Source: Acaryochloris marina S15
Lineage (GTDB): Bacteria > Cyanobacteriota > Cyanobacteriia > Thermosynechococcales > Thermosynechococcaceae
Assembly: GCF_018336915.1 (NCBI RefSeq)
Contig: NZ_CP064923.1
Span: forward strand, 2,100,001-2,132,000
DNA: 32,000 nucleotides
Direction: 5' to 3'
The notes beneath the pieces are model-generated. The model was not told where the DNA came from, did not search any database, and worked only from the letters and a program-made list of their open reading frames with translations. Positions 4,470-31,120 of the stretch are shown here, in pieces (position 1 is the stretch's first letter; each line of letters starts with the position of its first letter). Both the position numbers and the translations under genes were made by a program.

Positions 4470-5777
4470 ATGGCAGCTACGATCGCATTGATCGCACACG
4501 ATCGGAAAAAAGATCAAATCGTTGAATTTGCTAAGCAATACCAACCTGTCCTTTGTCGGTATCACATCATTGCCACAGGTACGACTGGGCAACGGATTCA
4601 GGATGCTACAGACCTTGATGTAGAGCGAATGCTGTCAGGCCCTATGGGAGGTGATGCCCAAATTGCAACCCAGGTGGCTGAGGGCAAAGTTACCGCCGTT
4701 ATTTTTCTCATCGATCCGCTCTATGCCCAACCCCATGAACCCGATATTCAGACCCTTCAACGGATTTGTGCCGTTTATGATGTACCCGTTGCCATCAATG
4801 TAGGGACAGCAACGGCCATCCTAGAGCAACTGCGCCGTACCCGAGTCGCTCACCTTGTTTTCAATCCAGTGTCTGGGCAAGGCAATGCCGATCACGATCT
4901 AACTTTGATAGAAGAACTTCTCAGTCCAGCCATGGAACTCGTGGTGCATTTAACCACTCCAGATACCCATCCCAGCGAACTCGTGGAAGATGCGATTTCA
5001 GCTCAAGCCGATTTGATTTTGGCTTCCGGTGGTGATGGCACTATCTCTGCTGTGGCAGGGGCATTAATTGGATCCAATATTCCTCTGGGAGTGATTCCTC
5101 GGGGAACAGCCAACGCTTTTGCGGCGGCCCTCAGCATTTCCCAGGGATTTACACCTATTCGAACGGCCTGCAACATTATTGTCCAAGGGAAGACTTGGGT
5201 GGTCGATGTGGCGAAGTGTAACGATCAGCCGATGATTTTACTAGCAGGGATTGGATTAGAGGCAGAAGTAATTGAGCGAGCAGACCGAGAGGCCAAAAAT
5301 CGTTGGGGGGCTTTCGCCTACATTATGGAAGGGATTAAGCAGTTCAATCAGCAGGAGCTTTTTGAAACGGAGATTGAGGTGGAGGGCGTGATCAAAACCT
5401 TTAAGGCCGGTGCCGTCACGATCGCCAATGCTGCACCCCCTACTTCAGTGATGGCCCAAGGGGCAGGGGTCGTCGATGCTAGTGATGGACTGCTGGATAT
5501 TACGATTGGCGCTCCCCAAACAGACTTGGAAGCGGTCGGAGCAATGGTGAATTTAGTGGGTGCCGCCCTTCTGCGCCAACCCACCAATCGAGAAGACATT
5601 ATCAATCTCCAAACTCGGCGGGTGAAAGTAAAAACCCAACCACCCCAAAAAGTTGTGGTGGATGGGGAGATGATCGGGACAACCCCCATCGAAGTGGAAT
5701 GCATTCCCCGAGGGTTGATTGTATTTGCCCCGGAGTCAGCAGATCTTCATCAGGAAACTTCGGAACCAGAAGCATAA
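4470..5777 (+). CDS. Fusion protein: methylglyoxal synthase(-like) domain + diacylglycerol-kinase-family (YegS/DagK-type) lipid kinase domain
   Basis: The N-terminal ~125 aa align by eye with MgsA (IALIAHDRKK, ATGTTG, LSGPMGGDAQ, PHEPDIQTL, PVAINVGTA). The rest carries DAGK catalytic-domain motifs (NPVSGQG, ASGGDGTISAV, GVIPRGTANAFA). Confidence 0.82.
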   Translation: MAATIALIAHDRKKDQIVEFAKQYQPVLCRYHIIATGTTGQRIQDATDLDVERMLSGPMGGDAQIATQVAEGKVTAVIFLIDPLYAQPHEPDIQTLQRICAVYDVPVAINVGTATAILEQLRRTRVAHLVFNPVSGQGNADHDLTLIEELLSPAMELVVHLTTPDTHPSELVEDAISAQADLILASGGDGTISAVAGALIGSNIPLGVIPRGTANAFAAALSISQGFTPIRTACNIIVQGKTWVVDVAKCNDQPMILLAGIGLEAEVIERADREAKNRWGAFAYIMEGIKQFNQQELFETEIEVEGVIKTFKAGAVTIANAAPPTSVMAQGAGVVDASDGLLDITIGAPQTDLEAVGAMVNLVGAALLRQPTNREDIINLQTRRVKVKTQPPQKVVVDGEMIGTTPIEVECIPRGLIVFAPESADLHQETSEPEA

Positions 5778-5798
5778 GTGGGTTAAAGGACATACCGA

Positions 5799-6146
5799 CT
5801 AACGATGGAATCCTTTATGGTCATGATGGAACTTACGATCATGACCATGGTGCTTGTCGTGATGCTTCTTATCGAATTTTTTGAATTTTTTGAATTTCTT
5901 GAATCCAAAATTAGGGGAGCGACGGAATCGGTTAAAGCGTCGGCGACCGTGATTTCGCCGACGGAATCTGCGGCGACTATGAAAACCACGACGATGATGA
6001 CCAAATTTGTTGAACTTTAAGGAGACCAATTGAGGCTCTTGCTGGTCAGAAAATAAACCAATCTCGGCGGCTTTCGCTTCGCTGATACCAATCGTGAAAA
6101 CGGATAAGCTGAGTAATGCAGTGGAGAGTATACGTTTCGGAGTCAT
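5799..6146 (-). CDS. Small secreted His/Arg/Lys/Phe-rich low-complexity protein
   Basis: ATG at 6146 is preceded by AAGAGG. The N-terminus MTPKRILSTALLSLSVFTIGISEAKA-AE is a canonical signal peptide with an AxA site. The mature part is dominated by R/K/H/F (HHRRGFHSRRRFRRRNHGRRRFNRFRR...KKFKKFKKFDKKHHDKHHGHDRKFHHDHKGFHR). The ORF-track start at 6275 adds an implausible leader. Confidence 0.55.
   Translation of the reverse strand: MTPKRILSTALLSLSVFTIGISEAKAAEIGLFSDQQEPQLVSLKFNKFGHHRRGFHSRRRFRRRNHGRRRFNRFRRSPNFGFKKFKKFKKFDKKHHDKHHGHDRKFHHDHKGFHR
5874..5906. repeat. 9-bp tandem repeat (GAATTTTTT x2, GAATTTCTT, partial GAATCC) inside the His/Arg-rich ORF
   Basis: Read directly: gaattttttgaattttttgaatttcttgaatcc. 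It encodes (KKF)3 on the minus strand, and the unit length is a multiple of 3. Confidence 0.85.
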
Positions 6147-7733: not shown

Positions 7734-7769
7734 GAATCGACTTTGAAAAAGTTTTCAGACCTTTAGCTA

Positions 7770-8111
7770 TTAGTGCTCAATTTCTGGAGGTAGTTTAAAT
7801 TCCCCGGATGGAGTAGGTAAAAACGGATATGTATTTGGAATAGCAGCTAAGGGAATAGCCCCATAGATATGGGGATACTGCTCTTCTCCTCCCTCACAAT
7901 TCTCATATCGCAGCTCCATATCCAAAAGCTGAGGGTTGATTTCTAGTAAAACTAGATCTGTGCGATCGCAAAACAAACGGTGGGCCACTTCTAAGACTTG
8001 ATGCTGATCGGAGCAGTGAATAAACCCCTCAGTCGTAAGGGAAGAGGCGCGATACTCCCTAGCCGTTTGGGCAGCCTGCCAATCAAACTTTTGAGCAATA
8101 TGGAAAATCAT
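7770..8111 (-). CDS. DUF952-family protein
   Basis: 113-aa ORF whose pattern (MIFHI...W..A......Y...SL..EGFIHCS...Q...VA...F.....LVLL.I....L......E......YPHIYG.I....I) I recognise as DUF952. Confidence 0.7.
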   Translation of the reverse strand: MIFHIAQKFDWQAAQTAREYRASSLTTEGFIHCSDQHQVLEVAHRLFCDRTDLVLLEINPQLLDMELRYENCEGGEEQYPHIYGAIPLAAIPNTYPFLPTPSGEFKLPPEIEH

Positions 8112-9791: not shown

Positions 9792-10283
9792 TTATACAGG
9801 CACAAGTTGAACAATCAACGCACGTCGATCAAAGATTTGAACCTCACTTACCTTGCTTAAATCCTCGATGACTCTCTGCAATAAGTCGGTGGCTCGGTCA
9901 CGATGCTGGTGTTCTCGGCCTCTCAAGCGCACTTGAAACTTGACACTGTCTCCCTTTTCAAGCCACTGCAAAGCCCGACTAATGCGGACCCCATAATCAG
10001 CTTCGCCCACATTTGGGCGGAGTTTTACTTCTTTCAGAGAAGGTTTAGAGGAAGACTGCTTCTGACGCTTCTTCTGCTCATATCGATACTTGCCAAAATC
10101 CATGATCTTGGCGACTGGTGCGTCCTCTCGCTCGGAGACGACCACCAAGTCCAGTTTGGCCTGCTGGGCCAGGGAAAGCGCTTCTTGTGTATCAACAATT
10201 CCTTGCTTAGTCCCTGTCTGATCGATCAGTAGGACTTTTTTGGCTAGGATTTTGTTATTGATGGAGGGTTTTTTCAGAATAAT
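9792..10283 (-). CDS. infC: Translation initiation factor IF-3, initiating at a non-canonical ATT (AUU) codon
   Basis: The ORF-track fragment encodes the IF-3 linker and C-domain (KIMDFGKYRYEQKKRQK...VKFQVRLRGREHQH). The in-frame upstream extension encodes the conserved N-domain (KVLLIDQTGTKQGIVDTQEALSLAQQAKLDLVVVS). No ATG/GTG/TTG lies between the in-frame TGA (10305-10307) and 10148. ATT ATT at 10283/10280 is preceded by GAGG with 5-nt spacing. Confidence 0.85.
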   Translation of the reverse strand: MILKKPSINNKILAKKVLLIDQTGTKQGIVDTQEALSLAQQAKLDLVVVSEREDAPVAKIMDFGKYRYEQKKRQKQSSSKPSLKEVKLRPNVGEADYGVRISRALQWLEKGDSVKFQVRLRGREHQHRDRATDLLQRVIEDLSKVSEVQIFDRRALIVQLVPV

Positions 10284-10483: not shown

Positions 10484-11140
10484 GTGGAGATGGGCATCTT
10501 TCTCAGATATATATTGGCTTTTATGGTCGTTGCTGGCATTGCCATTAATTGCACTCTCTATTATTCAGTCAAAATGCTTTGTCAACCAGAACGCCTATTC
10601 GAGATAGTTTCAAACATTAACGACAGAAAGTTCAGTAAGGCTTTTCATAAGCTCAATGAATCAGCCAAGTCACTTTCCTTCTCTCATGAAGCCTTTTTCC
10701 TCTTTCATGGTGTTATTGGACCACCTTTGCTCTGCACATCATGGATTAATACACAAGAAAAAACGAGGATGTTGGCCTACCTAGGAGGTGGGGTGAAGAG
10801 CATAGATTTTGTCACAAAATATAGCGATATTCGCAGCCTGACAACGGCCTCAAGCAATGAGGCAATGTTACTGCCTTATCCGCCGTCCTATTATGTCCAA
10901 GCGTTTACGGGAATTGGCGTACATGCTCAATACCACAGACACCAAGAAGCAAGGACGTTAATTGAGACTAAGCTAAAGATTGCACCCATCATGCCTCATC
11001 AGGATGTGGTGAGTGGAGCATCAGTGGCAATGAAGAGGCAAGCGAAATATATTATGCGCTTGCCCTATTGGTACTTAAGAGGCGTCTATTGGTATTTAAT
11101 CCGCAGATACAATAGGGTTAATCGGAAAATAATCTTATAA
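10484..11140 (+). CDS. Hypothetical protein with N-terminal TM segment, no recognised domain
   Basis: 218-aa ORF with a GTG start and N-terminal hydrophobic helix (FLRYILAFMVVAGIAINCTLYY). No motif recognised; coding status is moderately supported by length only. Confidence 0.45.
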   Translation: MEMGIFLRYILAFMVVAGIAINCTLYYSVKMLCQPERLFEIVSNINDRKFSKAFHKLNESAKSLSFSHEAFFLFHGVIGPPLLCTSWINTQEKTRMLAYLGGGVKSIDFVTKYSDIRSLTTASSNEAMLLPYPPSYYVQAFTGIGVHAQYHRHQEARTLIETKLKIAPIMPHQDVVSGASVAMKRQAKYIMRLPYWYLRGVYWYLIRRYNRVNRKIIL

Positions 11141-11180
11141 CAGCTTTCCAAGCTCAATAACCGCAAGGAGAAACCGATGG

Positions 11181-11355
11181 AATCACTGCATTTGCAAATG
11201 ATAGTCCTGAATGACTTTCACATTCATCGTTTCTAATTGCAGCGATCGCAACGCTGCTGCCGTCGCCCCTGCAATCGTCGTCTTATAGGCTAGGGCAGAC
11301 CGTCAAATCAAGCGACTATCAGCATGGGTATTGGCAGATGGCGTAAAATATCCAC
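11181..11355 (-). pseudogene. Decayed duplicate of the carB 3' end (last ~57 codons)
   Basis: Manual alignment to 12551-12735 shows colinear high identity, starting 2 nt outside the stop codon. In the carB frame it reads [52 protein letters not shown]. True carB reads [61 protein letters not shown]. Differences are an internal TGA (11303-11305) and two in-frame deletions (12 nt and 6 nt). Confidence 0.85.
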
Positions 11356-11457
11356 AAAACCTGAGATTTGCGCCCATTAGATTAAGCAGACAGCTAAACT
11401 TATCGTCACCAGAAAACGCATCTCAGAGACTTTAAAGACAAGTGAAGAGGGGCAAAA

Positions 11458-12537
11458 ATGAGAGAAAAAAGCTGGTATAGGGTTCTATCGAGGGCAATAA
11501 AAAACGATCTTTCTCACAGGCTTCGACGCTGGCAGTTACTGGTATTAGCCGCAGGTTTAACCTTTAGTATGGTGCTGTTGGGGACTAGTGCGATGGCCTT
11601 AGGCCGGTCGGTGATCAGCGCACAAATGGATCTTCCTCAAACTAAAGCTGAAACAGGACCAACCAATGCCGCCGTCTATCACTTTAAAGTGGGCGACTTT
11701 AAGGCCATGGTGGTGAGTGACGGTACCCTATCCTTTCCACCAAACTTCTTTGTGCCCAAAGCCGACCCCAAGGCAGTGACAGCAGTACTGAAGGAACATT
11801 TTCTCGCAACCAAAGATGTTTTAGCCCATATCAATGCCCTATACCTTGAAACCGATGAACATAAAGTTCTGATCGATACAGGCGCAGGGACTGCCTTTGG
11901 TCCCACCGCTGGTCATCTGCTGGAAAATCTTGAAGCCGCAGGTATTACTGCCCAAGAAATTGACACGGTTATTTTGACCCATGCCCACCCAGACCATATC
12001 GGCGGTATTTTAGATCCTAAGGGCCAGCTGCGCTTACCCAATGCCCAGTTCTATATCTCCCAGGCAGAGTCTGACTTTTGGATGGCGGACACCGTGGAAC
12101 TGCCCAAATCCCTATTAGACAAGGAAACAAAAGCTGGGACGATTATGGGGGCCAAGAAGAGACTAAGCGCTATTCAAGATCGGACGACCCTATTTGCCAT
12201 GGGCAGTGAGGTCATTCCCCATATTCAAGCCGTTGATTCTACGGGGCATACTCCCGGACAAGCTTCCTTCCTCATTACTTCCGGTGAAGACAGTCTACTC
12301 ACCACTGGAGACGTTTTCTTTAGCGATCCTCTTAACTTGGAGAACCCAGACTGGGAAGTGGCCTTTGATGGTGACCCTGAACAAGGTGTAATCGCTCGTC
12401 GTCAGTTACTGGAAACGGTTACTGCTCAGCGCCGTCTGCTGTTGGTGCCCCATATGCCCTTCCCAGGGCTGGGTCACGTCAGAACTCAAGGGGATGCCTA
12501 TGGGTGGGAGCCAGTTGTCTGGCGGTTTGCCGTTTAG
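11458..12537 (+). CDS. Exported MBL-fold metallo-hydrolase (lactamase_B superfamily)
   Basis: HxHxDH motif (ILTHAHPDHIGG) plus downstream His/Asp ligand candidates (STGHTPG, TTGDVF, PHMPFPG). The N-terminus has RR followed by a hydrophobic stretch ending AMALG (signal/Tat-like). A good SD (GAAGAGGGG) precedes the ATG. Confidence 0.85.
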   Translation: MREKSWYRVLSRAIKNDLSHRLRRWQLLVLAAGLTFSMVLLGTSAMALGRSVISAQMDLPQTKAETGPTNAAVYHFKVGDFKAMVVSDGTLSFPPNFFVPKADPKAVTAVLKEHFLATKDVLAHINALYLETDEHKVLIDTGAGTAFGPTAGHLLENLEAAGITAQEIDTVILTHAHPDHIGGILDPKGQLRLPNAQFYISQAESDFWMADTVELPKSLLDKETKAGTIMGAKKRLSAIQDRTTLFAMGSEVIPHIQAVDSTGHTPGQASFLITSGEDSLLTTGDVFFSDPLNLENPDWEVAFDGDPEQGVIARRQLLETVTAQRRLLLVPHMPFPGLGHVRTQGDAYGWEPVVWRFAV

Positions 12538-12552
12538 CTGATCCATTAAAAA

Positions 12553-15500
12553 TCACTGCATTTGCAGGTGATAGTCCTGAATAGCTTTGACATCCATTGT
12601 TTCTGATTGCAGCGATCGCAACGCTGCTGCCGTCGCCTTTGCTCCCGCAATCGTTGTAATCAGTGGAATCTTATAGGCTAGAGCCGACCGTCGAATCAAA
12701 CGGCCATCGGCATGGGCATCACTGCCGGAGGGCGTATTGAGAATTAGCTGCACCTGACGATTTTTGATCAAATCTAGAACATTGGGGCGGCCTTCATGCA
12801 GTTTTAGTACTGGAGTCACCTCAAAGCCTTCTGCCTCTAGAACCTTTTGAGTTCCGGCTGTCGCCACCAATTTGAATCCTAAGTCAATTAAATCCTTGGC
12901 AATGGGGATCACCGCTTGCTTATCTCGATCCGTCATGGAGACAAAAACCGATCCCGATTGGGGTAGATCCTGATGGGCCGAGAGCTGAGATTTGGCAAAG
13001 GCTTTACCAAAATCAGTATCAATCCCCATTGCCTCACCTGTAGAACGCATTTCGGGGCCTAAAATCGTGTCGGTGCCAGGGAATTTAGCAAAGGGCAATA
13101 CTGCCTCTTTCACAGAGATATGCTGAGGAATTCGCTCCTTTGTGATCCCTAGTTCCGCTAGTGTTTGGCCTGACATCAACCGAGCTGCAACTTGAGCGAT
13201 GGGCAAGCCAATTGCTTTAGAGACAAAGGGGACTGTGCGAGAAGCTCTGGGATTGGCTTCCAAGATATAGACCTGCTCCCCCTGGACAGCAAATTGCAGG
13301 TTCATTAAGCCAATAACATTAAGCTGTTGTGCAAGCTGCTTACTCCACTGTCGGATCGTCGCTAGGGTTTCTTCTCCTAGGGATAGGGTAGGGATTGCAC
13401 AGGCAGAATCGCCCGAATGAACACCTGCTTGCTCGATATGCTCCATAATGCCGCCGATCACAACTTCACCAGTACGATCTGCGATCGCATCTACGTCTAC
13501 TTCAATGGCATCTTCTAAAAACTTGTCCACCAAGATGGGGTGATCTGGTTCTATTTGGACCGCAAAGGTCATATAGCGCTCTAGTTCTTCATCTGAGTAG
13601 ACAATCTCCATTGCCCGTCCCCCCAGCACATAGCTGGGCCGCACCACCACGGGATATTGGATTCGCTGGGCCACTTCAATGGCTTCCTGGTTGCTGCGGG
13701 CAATCCCATTGGGTGGCTGTGTGATGTTGAGGGTATGGAGAATCTGCTCGAATCGCTCCCGATCCTCGGCGATATCAATGGAGTCTGGCGATGTGCCCCA
13801 AATCTTGGGACCGTCAGGCTTCTCTTGTAAATAGGTTTGCAGTGGCACCGCCAACTTTAGGGGAGTTTGACCACCAAACTGGATGATAATCCCTTCTGGA
13901 TTTTCCGCCTCCAAAATATTGAGCACATCTTCTTTAGTCAGGGGTTCAAAATAAAGGCGATCACTGGTGTCATAATCCGTGGATACGGTTTCCGGGTTGG
14001 AGTTGACCATGATCGTCTCAAAATCATCCGCCTGCAAAGCATAGGACGCATGGCAACAGCAGTAGTCAAACTCAATACCTTGGCCAATCCGATTCGGCCC
14101 CGACCCCAGAATGATTACCTTACGGCGATCGGAGGGCAACACTTCCGATTCCTGCTCATAGGTGGAATAGTAATAGGGGGTCAAAGCTTCAAACTCAGCC
14201 GCGCAGGTATCTACCGTTTTATAGGCAGGCACCACCCCTAGCTGTTTCCGATAGGTGCGGACTTCATCTTCGCTGGCTAAGGTGGCGAAGGCAATCTGTG
14301 GATCGCTAAATCCTTGCTGCTTAATCTGCCACATCAAGTCTGCTGTCACATCGTACAGATTGGTTTGCTTAAGATAGTTTTCAGTGGTTAGCAGTTCCTG
14401 AAAATGCCAAAGGAACCAGGGGTCAATTCCCGTAATCTCATAAATTTCTTCAACGCTGATATCCGCCTGCAAGGCATGGCGAACAGTATAGATACGGTCA
14501 GGGTTAGGATTTCGGAGGCTAGCCCGAATCTGCTCTAGACTCGGCAGGTTCTCAGCCTGGTCACATCCCCAGCCAAATCGTCCTGTTTCTAACGACCGTA
14601 GAGCCTTCTGAAACGATTCTAGAAAGGTGCGGCCAATGGCCATCGCCTCGCCCACAGATTTCATCTGCGTGGTTAACGTAGGTTCTGAACCGGGAAACTT
14701 TTCAAAAGCAAACCGAGGAATTTTAGTGACGACATAGTCGATGCTGGGCTCAAAGCTTGCTGGGGTTTTGCGCGTAATATCATTGGGAATTTCGCTAAGA
14801 GCATAGCCAACCGCCAATTTGGCTGCGAACTTAGCAATAGGGAATCCGGTAGCCTTGGACGCGAGGGCGGAAGAACGAGACACCCGAGGATTCATCTCAA
14901 TGACAACCACATCGCCATCGACAGGATTCACTGCAAACTGAATATTTGATCCACCCGTTTCTACCCCGATTTCGCGGATGATCTTAATAGAAGCATCCCG
15001 CAATCGCTGATATTCCTTATCCGTCAGAGTTTGGGCTGGGGCAACGGTAATCGAGTCCCCCGTATGTACGCCCATCGGATCGATATTCTCGATGGAGCAA
15101 ATAATCACCACATTGTCGGCTAGATCCCGCATGACTTCCAGCTCATACTCTTTCCAGCCAATCAGGGACTTCTCAATCAAAATTTGAGAAACGGGGCTGG
15201 CATCGAGACCACTCTGGGAAATCGCTTCAAATTCTTCTTGGTTATAGGCAATGCCACCCCCCGTCCCCCCTAAAGTAAAGGCAGGGCGAATGATTAAAGG
15301 ATAGGTGCCAATCTCTTGGGCAATTTGCTGGGATTCTGCCATGGTTTCGGCTAAACCCGATGGACAAACACCTAAGCCAATCCGCCCCATGGCTTCTTTA
15401 AATAGCTTGCGGTCTTCAGCCATTTCAATGGCCGGGAGTTTGGCTCCAATGAGCTCCACACCATATTTATCTAAAACTCCAGTCTTGGCTAAAGTGACCG

Positions 15501-15795
15501 CCAAGTTCAAAGCAGTTTGGCCGCCCATCGTTGGCAACAAGGCATCCGGTCGTTCTTTGGCGATCACCTTTTCGACCAATTCGGGGGTTAGGGGTTCAAT
15601 ATAGATCCGCTCCGCTGTTTCTGGATCCGTCATAATCGTGGCTGGATTAGAGTTAATCAACACCACTTCATATCCTTCGTCCCGCAATGCTTTGCAGGCT
15701 TGGGTACCGGAATAGTCAAATTCACAGGCTTGCCCAATCACAATTGGCCCAGAACCAATCAGCAGGATTTTGTGCAGATCATCACGGCGAGGCAT
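12553..15795 (-). CDS. carB: Carbamoyl-phosphate synthase large subunit
   Basis: 1080-aa ORF with two ATP-grasp halves and diagnostic N-termini of each half ([25 protein letters not shown] and [25 protein letters not shown]), plus a C-terminal MGS-like allosteric domain. Confidence 0.98.
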
Positions 15796-28584: not shown

Positions 28585-29841
28585 TTACCAACCCCCGCCA
28601 GCACCACCCCCGCCACTGCTTCCACCACCAAAACCACCCCCACCAGAACCCCCACTGGAACCTCCGCCACTGCCTCCCCCTCCGCTATAGCCACCGTAAC
28701 CGCCATAACTACTGGTAGAGCTAGAACGTGATCGGACTGGTTTTAGACGAGGTGTTTTCTCTTGAAATTCTTTGTAGAGGCCACAACAGACGCACATTTG
28801 CGTAATCAATTGCTTCCCACATTCTTTTTCTGTTGCTTCTTCCAAGATTTCTGTGGCATGTCGGGTGGTGTATTCCTCGCAATTAGAACATTCTCGAAAA
28901 GAAATCTGGTTCCAAATATAGGCGCGGATATGAATTGAATCTGAAGCATTAGGACAAGACGATGAACACTTCCAACCCATAAACTTAACGCTACCCATTT
29001 TTTGAGCGGTTTGTTCAATGGTGGTGAGGTGGGGCGAAAGTATTTCAGCATTCACTTTTTTGAGGCTTTTCTGGCAATAGATACAGCGGGGTGGTGTACT
29101 TCTCAAGTCATTGCTGTATTCCTCCCGAGAAACACGAGATCGTTTCCCTGGTTTCAGTAATGCTCCTTTTTTTCGATTAACCAGAAAACTCATGCCGCCT
29201 ATGAATCCACCACCGCCTAAGACCCATAAAATCCAAGAGAAGTCAGAACTGTCTTGAGATGTGTTGGGTATTGGATTAGAAGACACGGTGACTGATGAAT
29301 CAGAGCCGAGATGGGTCACTAAAAGCTGAGTCCCTTTCAAGGTTCCTTGATCAAAGTTGCCAGTCTTAAATTTGGGGAGAATCTGCTGGTCAATAATGCG
29401 ACCCACTTTGGCATCGGGCAAAATGGCTTCGATGCCATAACCAGTTTCGATTTCAACTCGACGGTCACTTTTGGAAATCAGGAATAGTACACCGTTGTCC
29501 TCCTCTTTTTTACCAATACCCCAGTGGTTAAATAGGCTGGTGGCAAAGGCTTTGGGTGAAGCTGATGGGGCTGTATTGGTAACAGTCACCACAGCAATTT
29601 CGCTACCATTCTTAGCTTCTAAATCAGTAATCAGTTGATTGAGTTTGGCTTCGGTTTGGGGACTGAGGACATTTGCCATGTCTGTAACCCAGGCTCCATT
29701 TTGCTGACGAGGATTGGGGACTTGTTTGTAGGGAACTGCCCGGGCTGTAAGGGGAAAAGTTGTGATGCCAGCAAGGCAACCACTGGCTATGGCAGCCCTA
29801 AGGCTAATACTTTTATAAGTGCTGGGATATGTCGTTTTCAT
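28585..29841 (-). CDS. TPM-domain (YgcG-type) membrane protein with Cys-rich cytoplasmic insert and Gly-rich C-terminal tail
   Basis: Signal peptide from the ATG at 29841 (MKTTYPSTYKSISLRAAIASGCLAGITTFPLTARA). The TPM domain reads VTDMANVLSPQTEAKLNQLITDLEAKNGSEIAVVTV...NGVLFLISKSDRRVEIETGYG.EAILPDA. It continues with a TM (FSWILWVLGGGGFIGGMSFLV), a segment with CxxC/CxxxC pairs, and the tail ...GGGFGGGSSGGGGAGGGW. The track start at 29955 would overlap the upstream gene. Confidence 0.85.
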   Translation of the reverse strand: MKTTYPSTYKSISLRAAIASGCLAGITTFPLTARAVPYKQVPNPRQQNGAWVTDMANVLSPQTEAKLNQLITDLEAKNGSEIAVVTVTNTAPSASPKAFATSLFNHWGIGKKEEDNGVLFLISKSDRRVEIETGYGIEAILPDAKVGRIIDQQILPKFKTGNFDQGTLKGTQLLVTHLGSDSSVTVSSNPIPNTSQDSSDFSWILWVLGGGGFIGGMSFLVNRKKGALLKPGKRSRVSREEYSNDLRSTPPRCIYCQKSLKKVNAEILSPHLTTIEQTAQKMGSVKFMGWKCSSSCPNASDSIHIRAYIWNQISFRECSNCEEYTTRHATEILEEATEKECGKQLITQMCVCCGLYKEFQEKTPRLKPVRSRSSSTSSYGGYGGYSGGGGSGGGSSGGSGGGGFGGGSSGGGGAGGGW

Positions 29842-30565: not shown

Positions 30566-31120
30566 TTACCAATCTCCACCATCGCCGCCCCCATCACTGC
30601 TTCCACCACCGAAATCGCTACTATCGTTATAGTTCCCATAATCGCTATGGCTGCTAGAATCGCTGCTACAGTCGAACCAGGTGTTGCTGCTGCTCCGATT
30701 CCCACTGGACTGATTGGCTAGAATTCGCCAAAAAATAATGCTGCTAAAGCCTAGAATGCCGATCAGCACAATCCAGTCAGTAGAATCTTGATTCGAAGAA
30801 CGGGGTTGGCGACGATTCGAGTTTGATGCCACAGCAATCGATTGATCGATATGGAAAGAGGAAAATGCCAGTGGTTGTTGGGAAACTTGTCTTGGAGACA
30901 AACCCGTGGCTATGATTGTCGAAGGTGGAGTGAGGGCTGAATCGTAACCAATACCGATAGCAGGTTGATGATCCATTTTGGTTTCTATGACTGGATGCAA
31001 CTGAAGGGGAGCGACAGCTCCCTGGTGGACAGATGCTGCAGCGCAAAGGGGAACGGTTGCGATCGCAACAACAATACCAACACCCATAACTTTGTGGGGA
31101 GAATACTTTATAGATTTCAT
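30566..31120 (-). CDS. Small bitopic membrane protein carrying a YgcG-like Gly/Ser/Asp tail ending in Trp
   Basis: The ATG at 31120 is preceded by AGAGGA. It has a signal-like N-terminus (MKSIKYSPHKVMGVGIVVAIATVPLCAAA), a TM (WIVLIGILGFSSIIFW) and the tail SSDSSSHSDYGNYNDSSDFGGGSSDGGGDGGDW. Its last 16 codons are homologous at DNA level to the TPM gene's last 16 codons. Confidence 0.6.
   Translation of the reverse strand: MKSIKYSPHKVMGVGIVVAIATVPLCAAASVHQGAVAPLQLHPVIETKMDHQPAIGIGYDSALTPPSTIIATGLSPRQVSQQPLAFSSFHIDQSIAVASNSNRRQPRSSNQDSTDWIVLIGILGFSSIIFWRILANQSSGNRSSSNTWFDCSSDSSSHSDYGNYNDSSDFGGGSSDGGGDGGDW

Follow-up and report, generated by a model that had tools for sequence, protein, structure and literature searches.

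A decaying copy of the carB 3′ end beside a lactonase-like gene in Acaryochloris marina marks an ancient insertion, probably made without an integrase

In Acaryochloris marina S15 the carB gene, which encodes the large subunit of carbamoyl-phosphate synthase, is accompanied by a second, decayed copy of its own 3′ end, and between the two copies lies a single gene for a metallo-β-lactamase (MBL) fold hydrolase. The locus was analysed within a stretch of 32,000 nucleotides (contig NZ_CP064923.1, positions 2,100,001 to 2,132,000; hereafter the window, to whose numbering all coordinates refer unless another locus is named). We regard it as established that the second copy is a remnant of carB dating from the base of the A. 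marina species complex, that it has decayed neutrally, that the MBL gene is the inserted part, that no recombinase accompanies it and that both carB ends come from within the A. marina lineage; the recombination route is what we infer from these. The route we favour, with a probability of roughly 0.6, is an integrase-free, homology-driven insertion-duplication through the end of carB. The locus is an ordinary recombination scar and not the trace of a mobile element with a foreign gene end, and the event is of a known kind, with no new mechanism or system.

Positions 11150-11420 were aligned locally with 12520-12800, using shuffled sequences as a control. The segment 11181-11331 (minus strand) proved to be a degraded copy of the carB 3′ end (12551-12719) in the same orientation, covering approximately the last 57 codons and the stop. 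Identity amounts to 161 of 186 aligned nucleotides (86.6%), with in-frame gaps of 6 and 12 nt, and the alignment score was 193 against a mean of 17.5 (sd 2.2) for the shuffles. This direct repeat is real and far beyond chance, and it is the only substantial one in the window, a short Gly-rich tail of two other genes aside. When both translations were anchored on their common stop codon (11183-11185 in the remnant and 12553-12555 in carB), the remnant showed an arginine codon changed to a stop (CGA to TGA, 11303-11305) and the loss of the residues IPLI (12 nt) and AK (6 nt). Homology begins 2 nt beyond the stop codon. The only product of an open reading frame (ORF) between the repeats is a 359-aa MBL-fold protein (11458-12537, plus strand), recognised by Pfam (PF00753), by matches in the PDB and by an NCBIfam AidB match below the cutoff. 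The gene converges on carB, and the two stop codons are separated by a spacer of 15 nt (12538-12552). From a comparison of the post-stop flanks of functional copies and remnants, the first 4-12 nt or so past the carB stop may belong to the duplicated segment. The intact carB occupies 12553-15795 on the minus strand (1080 aa; Pfam CPSase_L_D1/D2/D3 and MGS), and its product is 91-99.8% identical in amino acids to other Acaryochloris carB proteins. An earlier note, written from the letters of the window, had described the same-orientation copy, its three lesions, the position of the boundary, the 15-nt gap and the single intervening gene, and all of these were borne out. It had drawn the repeat from 11181 to 11355, of which the start stands and the end does not: the carB-derived part stops at about 11327-11331, and the letters beyond belong to the upstream spacer of the MBL gene, joined to the remnant by a later deletion.

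The window was compared with four further loci carrying the MBL-carB pair, namely L001 from a near-identical strain, L083 from A. marina NIES-2412, and L084 and L085 from more divergent Logan assemblies. The order remnant, MBL gene, carB was found in 5/5 of these A. marina-type loci, the window included. The MBL protein of the window is 90% identical to that of NIES-2412, and its carB falls into a 90%-identity cluster with those of A. marina MBIC11017, MBIC10699, CCMEE 5410, NIES-2412 and 'Moss Beach'; in MBIC11017, MBIC10699 and CCMEE 5410 the carB and MBL proteins bear consecutive accessions. In L083 the remnant measures 281 nt (L083:7490-7770) and aligns over the whole of 12553-12840 (minus strand), the functional copy of the duplicated segment, which comprises the last 95 codons and the stop and encodes the MGS-like allosteric domain. 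The inner junction of the remnant, J1, lies at about -285, is common to L083 and L085 and was mapped in L083 to approximately 7768-7771. Originally, therefore, some 285 nt and a few bases past the stop were duplicated. The ancestral layout reconstructed from these loci runs from the stop of a neighbouring gene, orf218, through 40 nt, the remnant (~285 nt), J1, spacer A (~100 nt) and spacer B (~130 nt) to the MBL gene, 15 nt and carB. In the window and in L084 the 5′ part of the remnant and spacer A are gone, and a multiple alignment with L083 and L085, which keep the missing segment, places the deletion junction of the window at 11327-11331, at a short microhomology. The window lineage lost ~130 nt of the remnant and ~100 nt of spacer, with the microhomology GGGTAT/GATAT. 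Nearly the same deletion is seen in the window (11327-11331) and in L084 (~7879), between CATGGGCAT of carB and GATATTGGCAT of the spacer; it was either inherited from a single event or arose more than once. Both outer flanks of the remnant-MBL-carB block in L084 are unlike those of the window, one being made up of Wzy/glycosyltransferase genes and the other of HTH_3-HipA.

The lesions of the remnant are specific to each lineage. The window has the nonsense change, the 12-nt and 6-nt deletions and the 5′ truncation; L083 has deletions of 1 nt and 5 nt; L084 has lost 15 nt, and a rearrangement breaks its remnant within the last ~16 nt; and L085 has an internal deletion of ~130 nt. Between orthologous remnants the ratio of non-synonymous to synonymous substitution (dN/dS) was 0.63-0.80, against 0-0.03 between the functional 3′ ends, both being small counts over 44-50 codons. 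Judged by these lesions and near-neutral rates, the remnant is a non-functional carB pseudogene fragment that decays neutrally and independently in each lineage, which confirms the description of it in the earlier note as a displaced, decaying 3′ fragment. We also weighed whether the remnant is kept for a function, either as promoter or 5′ untranslated region (UTR) of the MBL gene or, if transcribed, as an RNA antisense to the 3′ end of the carB mRNA that would couple the two genes. Some part of it does survive in every lineage, and its position, immediately ahead of the MBL gene, is such that transcription from the MBL strand would yield RNA complementary to the carB mRNA. But the parts deleted differ from lineage to lineage, substitution is near neutral, and within the remnant we found no promoter-like site, terminator, Rfam match or tRNA, nor any folding signal (z = -0.94). 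Moreover, what is conserved ahead of the MBL gene is the spacer and not the remnant, the two standing apart in L083 and L085, where the remnant is fuller. We consider a retained function extremely unlikely.

The spacer itself (11332-11457, plus strand) is not derived from carB, is 83-92% identical among the five MBL-carrying loci and is presumed to hold the promoter and 5′ UTR of the MBL gene. It showed no homology outside the five Acaryochloris loci and contains no consensus promoter. A motif within it, TATTGGCATATGGCATAAAATATCC, is kept in all five lineages (11332-11360 in the window, 7872-7900 in L083, 7625-7650 in L085); it consists of a tandem TGGCATA heptamer in the relatives and is slightly degenerate in the window. 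The motif may be a binding site for a regulator or a promoter element.

The polarity of the event was judged from relatives without the MBL gene. Neither the MBL gene nor a second carB end was found in L096, L097/L098 or L092 (Acaryochloris sp. RU_4_1), whose carB proteins are respectively 95%, 94% and 91% identical to that of the window, and the MBL-carB pair was likewise not found in A. thomasi (L094) or in L095. L096 is syntenic with L084 through HipA, HTH_3 and carB at ~80% nucleotide identity, and the synteny stops at the carB stop codon. In L084 the rearrangement breakpoint falls within the last ~16 nt of the remnant, and the side syntenic with the MBL-free L096 is the HipA-HTH_3-carB side. 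In L097, carB is followed by a sensor kinase and then by NUDIX, a 185-aa ORF, DUF952 and MFS genes, which correspond to the left flank of the window. The closest MBL orthologues outside the genus (77-79% amino acid identity; Synechococcus PCC 7335, Leptothoe and a marine metagenome-assembled genome) lie in unrelated contexts, and the same holds for orthologues of 59-79% identity on contigs long enough to show neighbours. In 0/31 metagenomic MBL loci did carB stand directly beside the gene, although many of these contigs are too short to show neighbours. A scan of contigs for full-length carB returned distant carB loci only (<=80% amino acid identity), with neither synteny nor a second carB end. 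Sisters lacking both MBL gene and remnant, together with orthologues that lie elsewhere, point to a single insertion of the MBL gene with duplication of the carB end, which this comparison places at the root of the A. marina complex; the claim of the earlier note that the MBL gene is an insertion is thereby upheld. On one unrelated cyanobacterial metagenomic contig (L113), an MBL homologue of 68% amino acid identity and a convergent carB 3′ end occur ~4.8 kb apart (31-900 and 5700-5897), a proximity that may be fortuitous or may reflect an older and looser association of these genes.

Both copies of the carB end trace to the same lineage. A neighbour-joining tree built from the final 288 nt of carB placed the remnants and the functional ends of MBL-carrying strains in one clade with 86% bootstrap support, to the exclusion of L092, L096, L097, L094 and L095. 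Synonymous divergence (dS) between remnant and functional copy was 0.29-0.58, against at least 1.4 to the MBL-free relatives. The last 288 nt of the functional gene are 77-80% identical to those relatives and the remaining carB is 79-82% identical, and this end falls comfortably within the distribution of values given by 288-nt windows across carB and is no outlier. From the single clade, the dS values and the sliding-window identities it follows that both copies arose inside the A. marina lineage. On the same three grounds we reject the idea that the functional 3′ end is foreign, which the earlier note had proposed to examine by phylogeny.

Synonymous changes are somewhat over-represented among the sites at which remnant and functional copy differ (dN/dS 0.11-0.25). 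A test of this excess, comparing an inter-strain with an in-situ origin, gave P values from 0.0005 to 0.2 depending on the pair and the assumptions. Such a pattern might be expected if the remnant were the last piece of a complete second carB, a duplicate or xenologue that was once functional, accrued part of its changes under purifying selection and was then largely deleted. But J1 at about -285 is common to the deepest lineages, L083 and L085, and no lineage keeps more of the gene than this. Moreover, the excess is weak, and an allelic donor or later recombination into the functional copy explains it equally well. We therefore hold a second full-length carB to be very unlikely.

The geometry of the locus, an intact gene followed by cargo and then by a displaced 3′ fragment in direct orientation, is also that left by integrative elements, and the earlier note had read it as an insertion that brought in a foreign replacement 3′ end. 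On this explanation a prophage or genomic island would have integrated site-specifically at the 3′ end of carB, supplied a surrogate end and later lost its integrase and everything else except the MBL gene. A precedent exists in e14 and phage 21, which integrate in the 3′ end of icd in Escherichia coli and carry a surrogate 3′ end. As at icd, the gene is intact, the cargo is followed by the displaced direct repeat and homology runs no further than the coding sequence, here ending within a few nt of the stop codon; the absence of the MBL gene from sister lineages also fits an arriving element. Unlike at icd, there is neither an integrase nor any other element gene, and the cargo is a single gene of 1.1 kb. 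Pfam searches of the window ORFs of at least 100 aa, together with the gene lists of L001, L083, L084 and L085, revealed no gene for an integrase, transposase or other recombinase, whether in the window or in these related loci, as the earlier note had already remarked. The insert of L083, the least decayed, consists of the MBL gene and 230 nt alone, which leaves no room for one. Searches of the viral contigs of IMG/VR with the MBL protein and with the C-terminal 95 aa of carB gave no relatives, and the DNA of the 1.7-kb region gave no plasmid match in distant mode. Moreover, the repeat copies belong to one lineage, and the functional 3′ end groups with the remnants and is no outlier within carB, whereas an element would have brought a foreign end. 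An integrative element is distinctly unlikely on this evidence, and that part of the earlier note did not hold. The alternative that it had offered, recombination with DNA bearing a carB terminus, is viable, with the restriction that the donor would need to be a close relative or the genome itself.

The integrase-free insertion-duplication that we favour would have been one ancient event in the common ancestor of the A. marina species complex. A cassette of ~1.3 kb, made up of the lactonase-like MBL gene and ~230 nt of upstream DNA, would have been placed just behind the carB stop, leaving ~285 nt of the carB 3′ end and a few post-stop bases on both of its sides. The copy still joined to carB would have been kept under selection, and the distal copy would have decayed since. 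The main candidate for the route is a single-crossover (Campbell-type) integration of a circle bearing the MBL cassette together with ~300 nt from the 3′ end of carB; alternatively, homologous recombination on one side may have been combined with an illegitimate event. In each case the carB-bearing partner would have come from the same lineage or from a close relative. In keeping with a single crossover, L083 and L085 show a duplication of ~285 nt round a 1.3-kb cassette, and both copies derive from the same or a close genome. A repeat boundary at ~2-12 nt from the carB stop codon, directly against that of the MBL gene, is expected on this route because the incoming DNA would already have joined the carB end to the MBL gene.

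That boundary is the chief difficulty for a purely local event within one genome, whether a tandem duplication or template switch that captured the MBL gene or a tandem duplication of the MBL gene with the carB end, after which one copy of the MBL gene was lost. A random duplication would not be expected to end at such a place, the duplication-then-loss version needs two precise extra deletions, and, since no outgroup has the MBL gene beside carB, its arrival there has to be explained on any account. In favour of a local origin, both copies are of the same lineage, and their divergence is about that of post-duplication decay, with 6 substitutions common to the remnants of the window and L083 and the others lineage-specific. 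Moreover, the synonymous excess is not significant when measured against the closest functional allele. Overall a local duplication with capture of the cassette seems to us possible but unlikely.

Together with that possibility, several observations weigh against the integration that we favour. Neither the donor nor a circular intermediate can be observed. No strain was found with the MBL gene beside carB and no remnant, though a donor from a related strain would need that arrangement. The synonymous excess is only suggestive of two different source genomes, and it could equally have come about if the functional end was later replaced by another allele. No exact empty site with both flanks conserved was found either, because each lineage has a different set of genes between the NUDIX gene and carB. 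The comparison of related strains that the earlier note had called for yielded carB loci free of MBL gene and remnant, none of which has the same flanks on both sides.

Campbell-type integration is familiar from the laboratory, where it is used in insertion-duplication mutagenesis. When donors homologous on one side only were introduced into E. coli by conjugation, most recombinants were single-crossover integrations of circles with duplications of 109-950 bp, and homology-facilitated illegitimate recombination (HFIR), set apart from these, gave deletions (PMC3240628). The Acaryochloris locus resembles the former in having a heterologous insert with a direct duplication, of ~285-300 bp as compared with the 109-950 bp of PMC3240628, in needing no site-specific recombinase and in leaving the gene whole as long as its 3′ end lies within the duplicated segment. 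It differs in being natural, fixed and inherited by a whole species complex, and in that its circle and donor are deduced. It is unlike HFIR in that recipient DNA was duplicated rather than deleted.

A second parallel is the displacement of 3′ ends at Rhs, contact-dependent inhibition (CDI) and type VI secretion system (T6SS) effector loci, for which HFIR has been proposed (Kirchberger et al. 2017, PMC5361080). As in the Rhs and T6SS cases, incoming DNA anchored in a conserved gene would re-supply the 3′ end and leave the older piece orphaned downstream. However, the Rhs, CDI and T6SS events diversify toxin and immunity modules under selection, whereas here the end of a housekeeping enzyme is restored and the displaced piece has no function. 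The Rhs and T6SS events can also be sequential, and L085 hints at a second displaced carB end. In that locus the carB copy abutting the MBL stop (L085:8852-8988) is a decayed fragment of 108 nt (…TMAGTKATAVAWRSLQSKTMDVNAIQDDRLQMQ*) joined to unrelated sequence. The MBL gene of L085 is thus flanked by two dead carB tails, and the contig ends 29 nt further on; these 29 nt past the second remnant gave no significant match. The second tail hints at a second displacement.

Taking L085 further, the carB 3′ end might be a recurrent, integrase-free landing pad in Acaryochloris, with the repeats letting the cassette loop out as a circle with carB homology, which could be taken up as DNA by other strains and re-enter by single crossover. 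Since the cell cannot do without carB, an insertion would survive only if it re-supplied the 3′ end, and each would leave a displaced tail; from its sequence, L085 appears to be such a case, with two carB tails round its MBL gene. We think this extension quite improbable. If true, this would amount to a gene cassette whose mobility depends solely on homologous recombination with a housekeeping gene.

Exchange through carB is visible in the present-day strains. The window and L001 are 99-100% identical in the MBL gene and only 75-80% identical over 14100-15000. Within carB, L001 falls to 75-88% over ~1.1 kb (14050-15250), with most of the other carB sequence at 99-100%; L083 is 95-99% identical to the window across the same 14050-15250. 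Conversely, the window and L083 share ~90% identity in the MBL gene and 97-99% in carB, the switch lying at the MBL/carB junction. On these identities carB is evidently a patchwork of tracts recombined between strains or species, and homologous exchange through it must therefore be frequent. Acaryochloris is known for the plasticity of its genomes.

Comparison with structures and families was used to characterise the cargo. The PDB matches of the MBL protein (4o98, 4le6, 1p9e and 4zo2; E values of 1e-44 to 1e-52) comprise methyl parathion hydrolase (MPH), the organophosphorus hydrolase OPHC2 and an acyl-homoserine lactonase structure. The NCBIfam equivalog AidB was matched with 148 bits, under its cutoff of 360 bits. 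By these matches the protein is a member of the wider MPH/OPHC2/AidB-like lactonase group (PF00753). Its N-terminus has two arginines (RRW) followed by a hydrophobic stretch, which suggests export. The GC content of the gene is 50.6%, and 49.2% at third codon positions (GC3), as compared with 49.8% and 50.6% for carB. With GC and GC3 this alike, composition gives no sign of a recent foreign origin, which the check suggested in the earlier note might have revealed. The MBL protein is 77-79% identical to orthologues of the distant marine Leptolyngbya-like cyanobacteria (PCC 7335, Leptothoe), a value nearly equal to that of the housekeeping carB (80-84%), and its match list held no named match from MBL-free Acaryochloris. 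The distribution of matches suggests that the gene has spread horizontally among marine cyanobacteria.

The locus offers a natural case of a single accessory gene that became fixed beside an essential gene without mobile-element machinery. The scar is datable and marks the base of the A. marina complex, which makes it a useful synapomorphy, and the comparison of remnant with functional copy provides an internal yardstick of the neutral rate for the genus. Moreover, a duplicated gene 3′ end with cargo is, as a geometry alone, not diagnostic of an integrative element.

Beyond the remnant, the native flank begins with orf218 (10484-11140, plus strand), which encodes a hypothetical protein without a Pfam or NCBIfam match. 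It is convergent with the remnant, ends 40 nt from it, and adjoins it in L001, L083 and L085 as well. Further into this flank, the infC ORF (9792-10148, minus strand) spans 118 aa from its first listed start, a TTG, as compared with 156 aa called in a related locus; the short form fits the unusual start codons for which IF3 genes are known and is not a truncation. At the other end of the window, 28585-28648 and 30566-30614 share a Gly/Ser-rich tail with 82% identity over 49 nt, the stop included. This tail ends two minus-strand genes, one for a TPM-domain protein of 456 aa and the other an ORF of 193 aa without a family.

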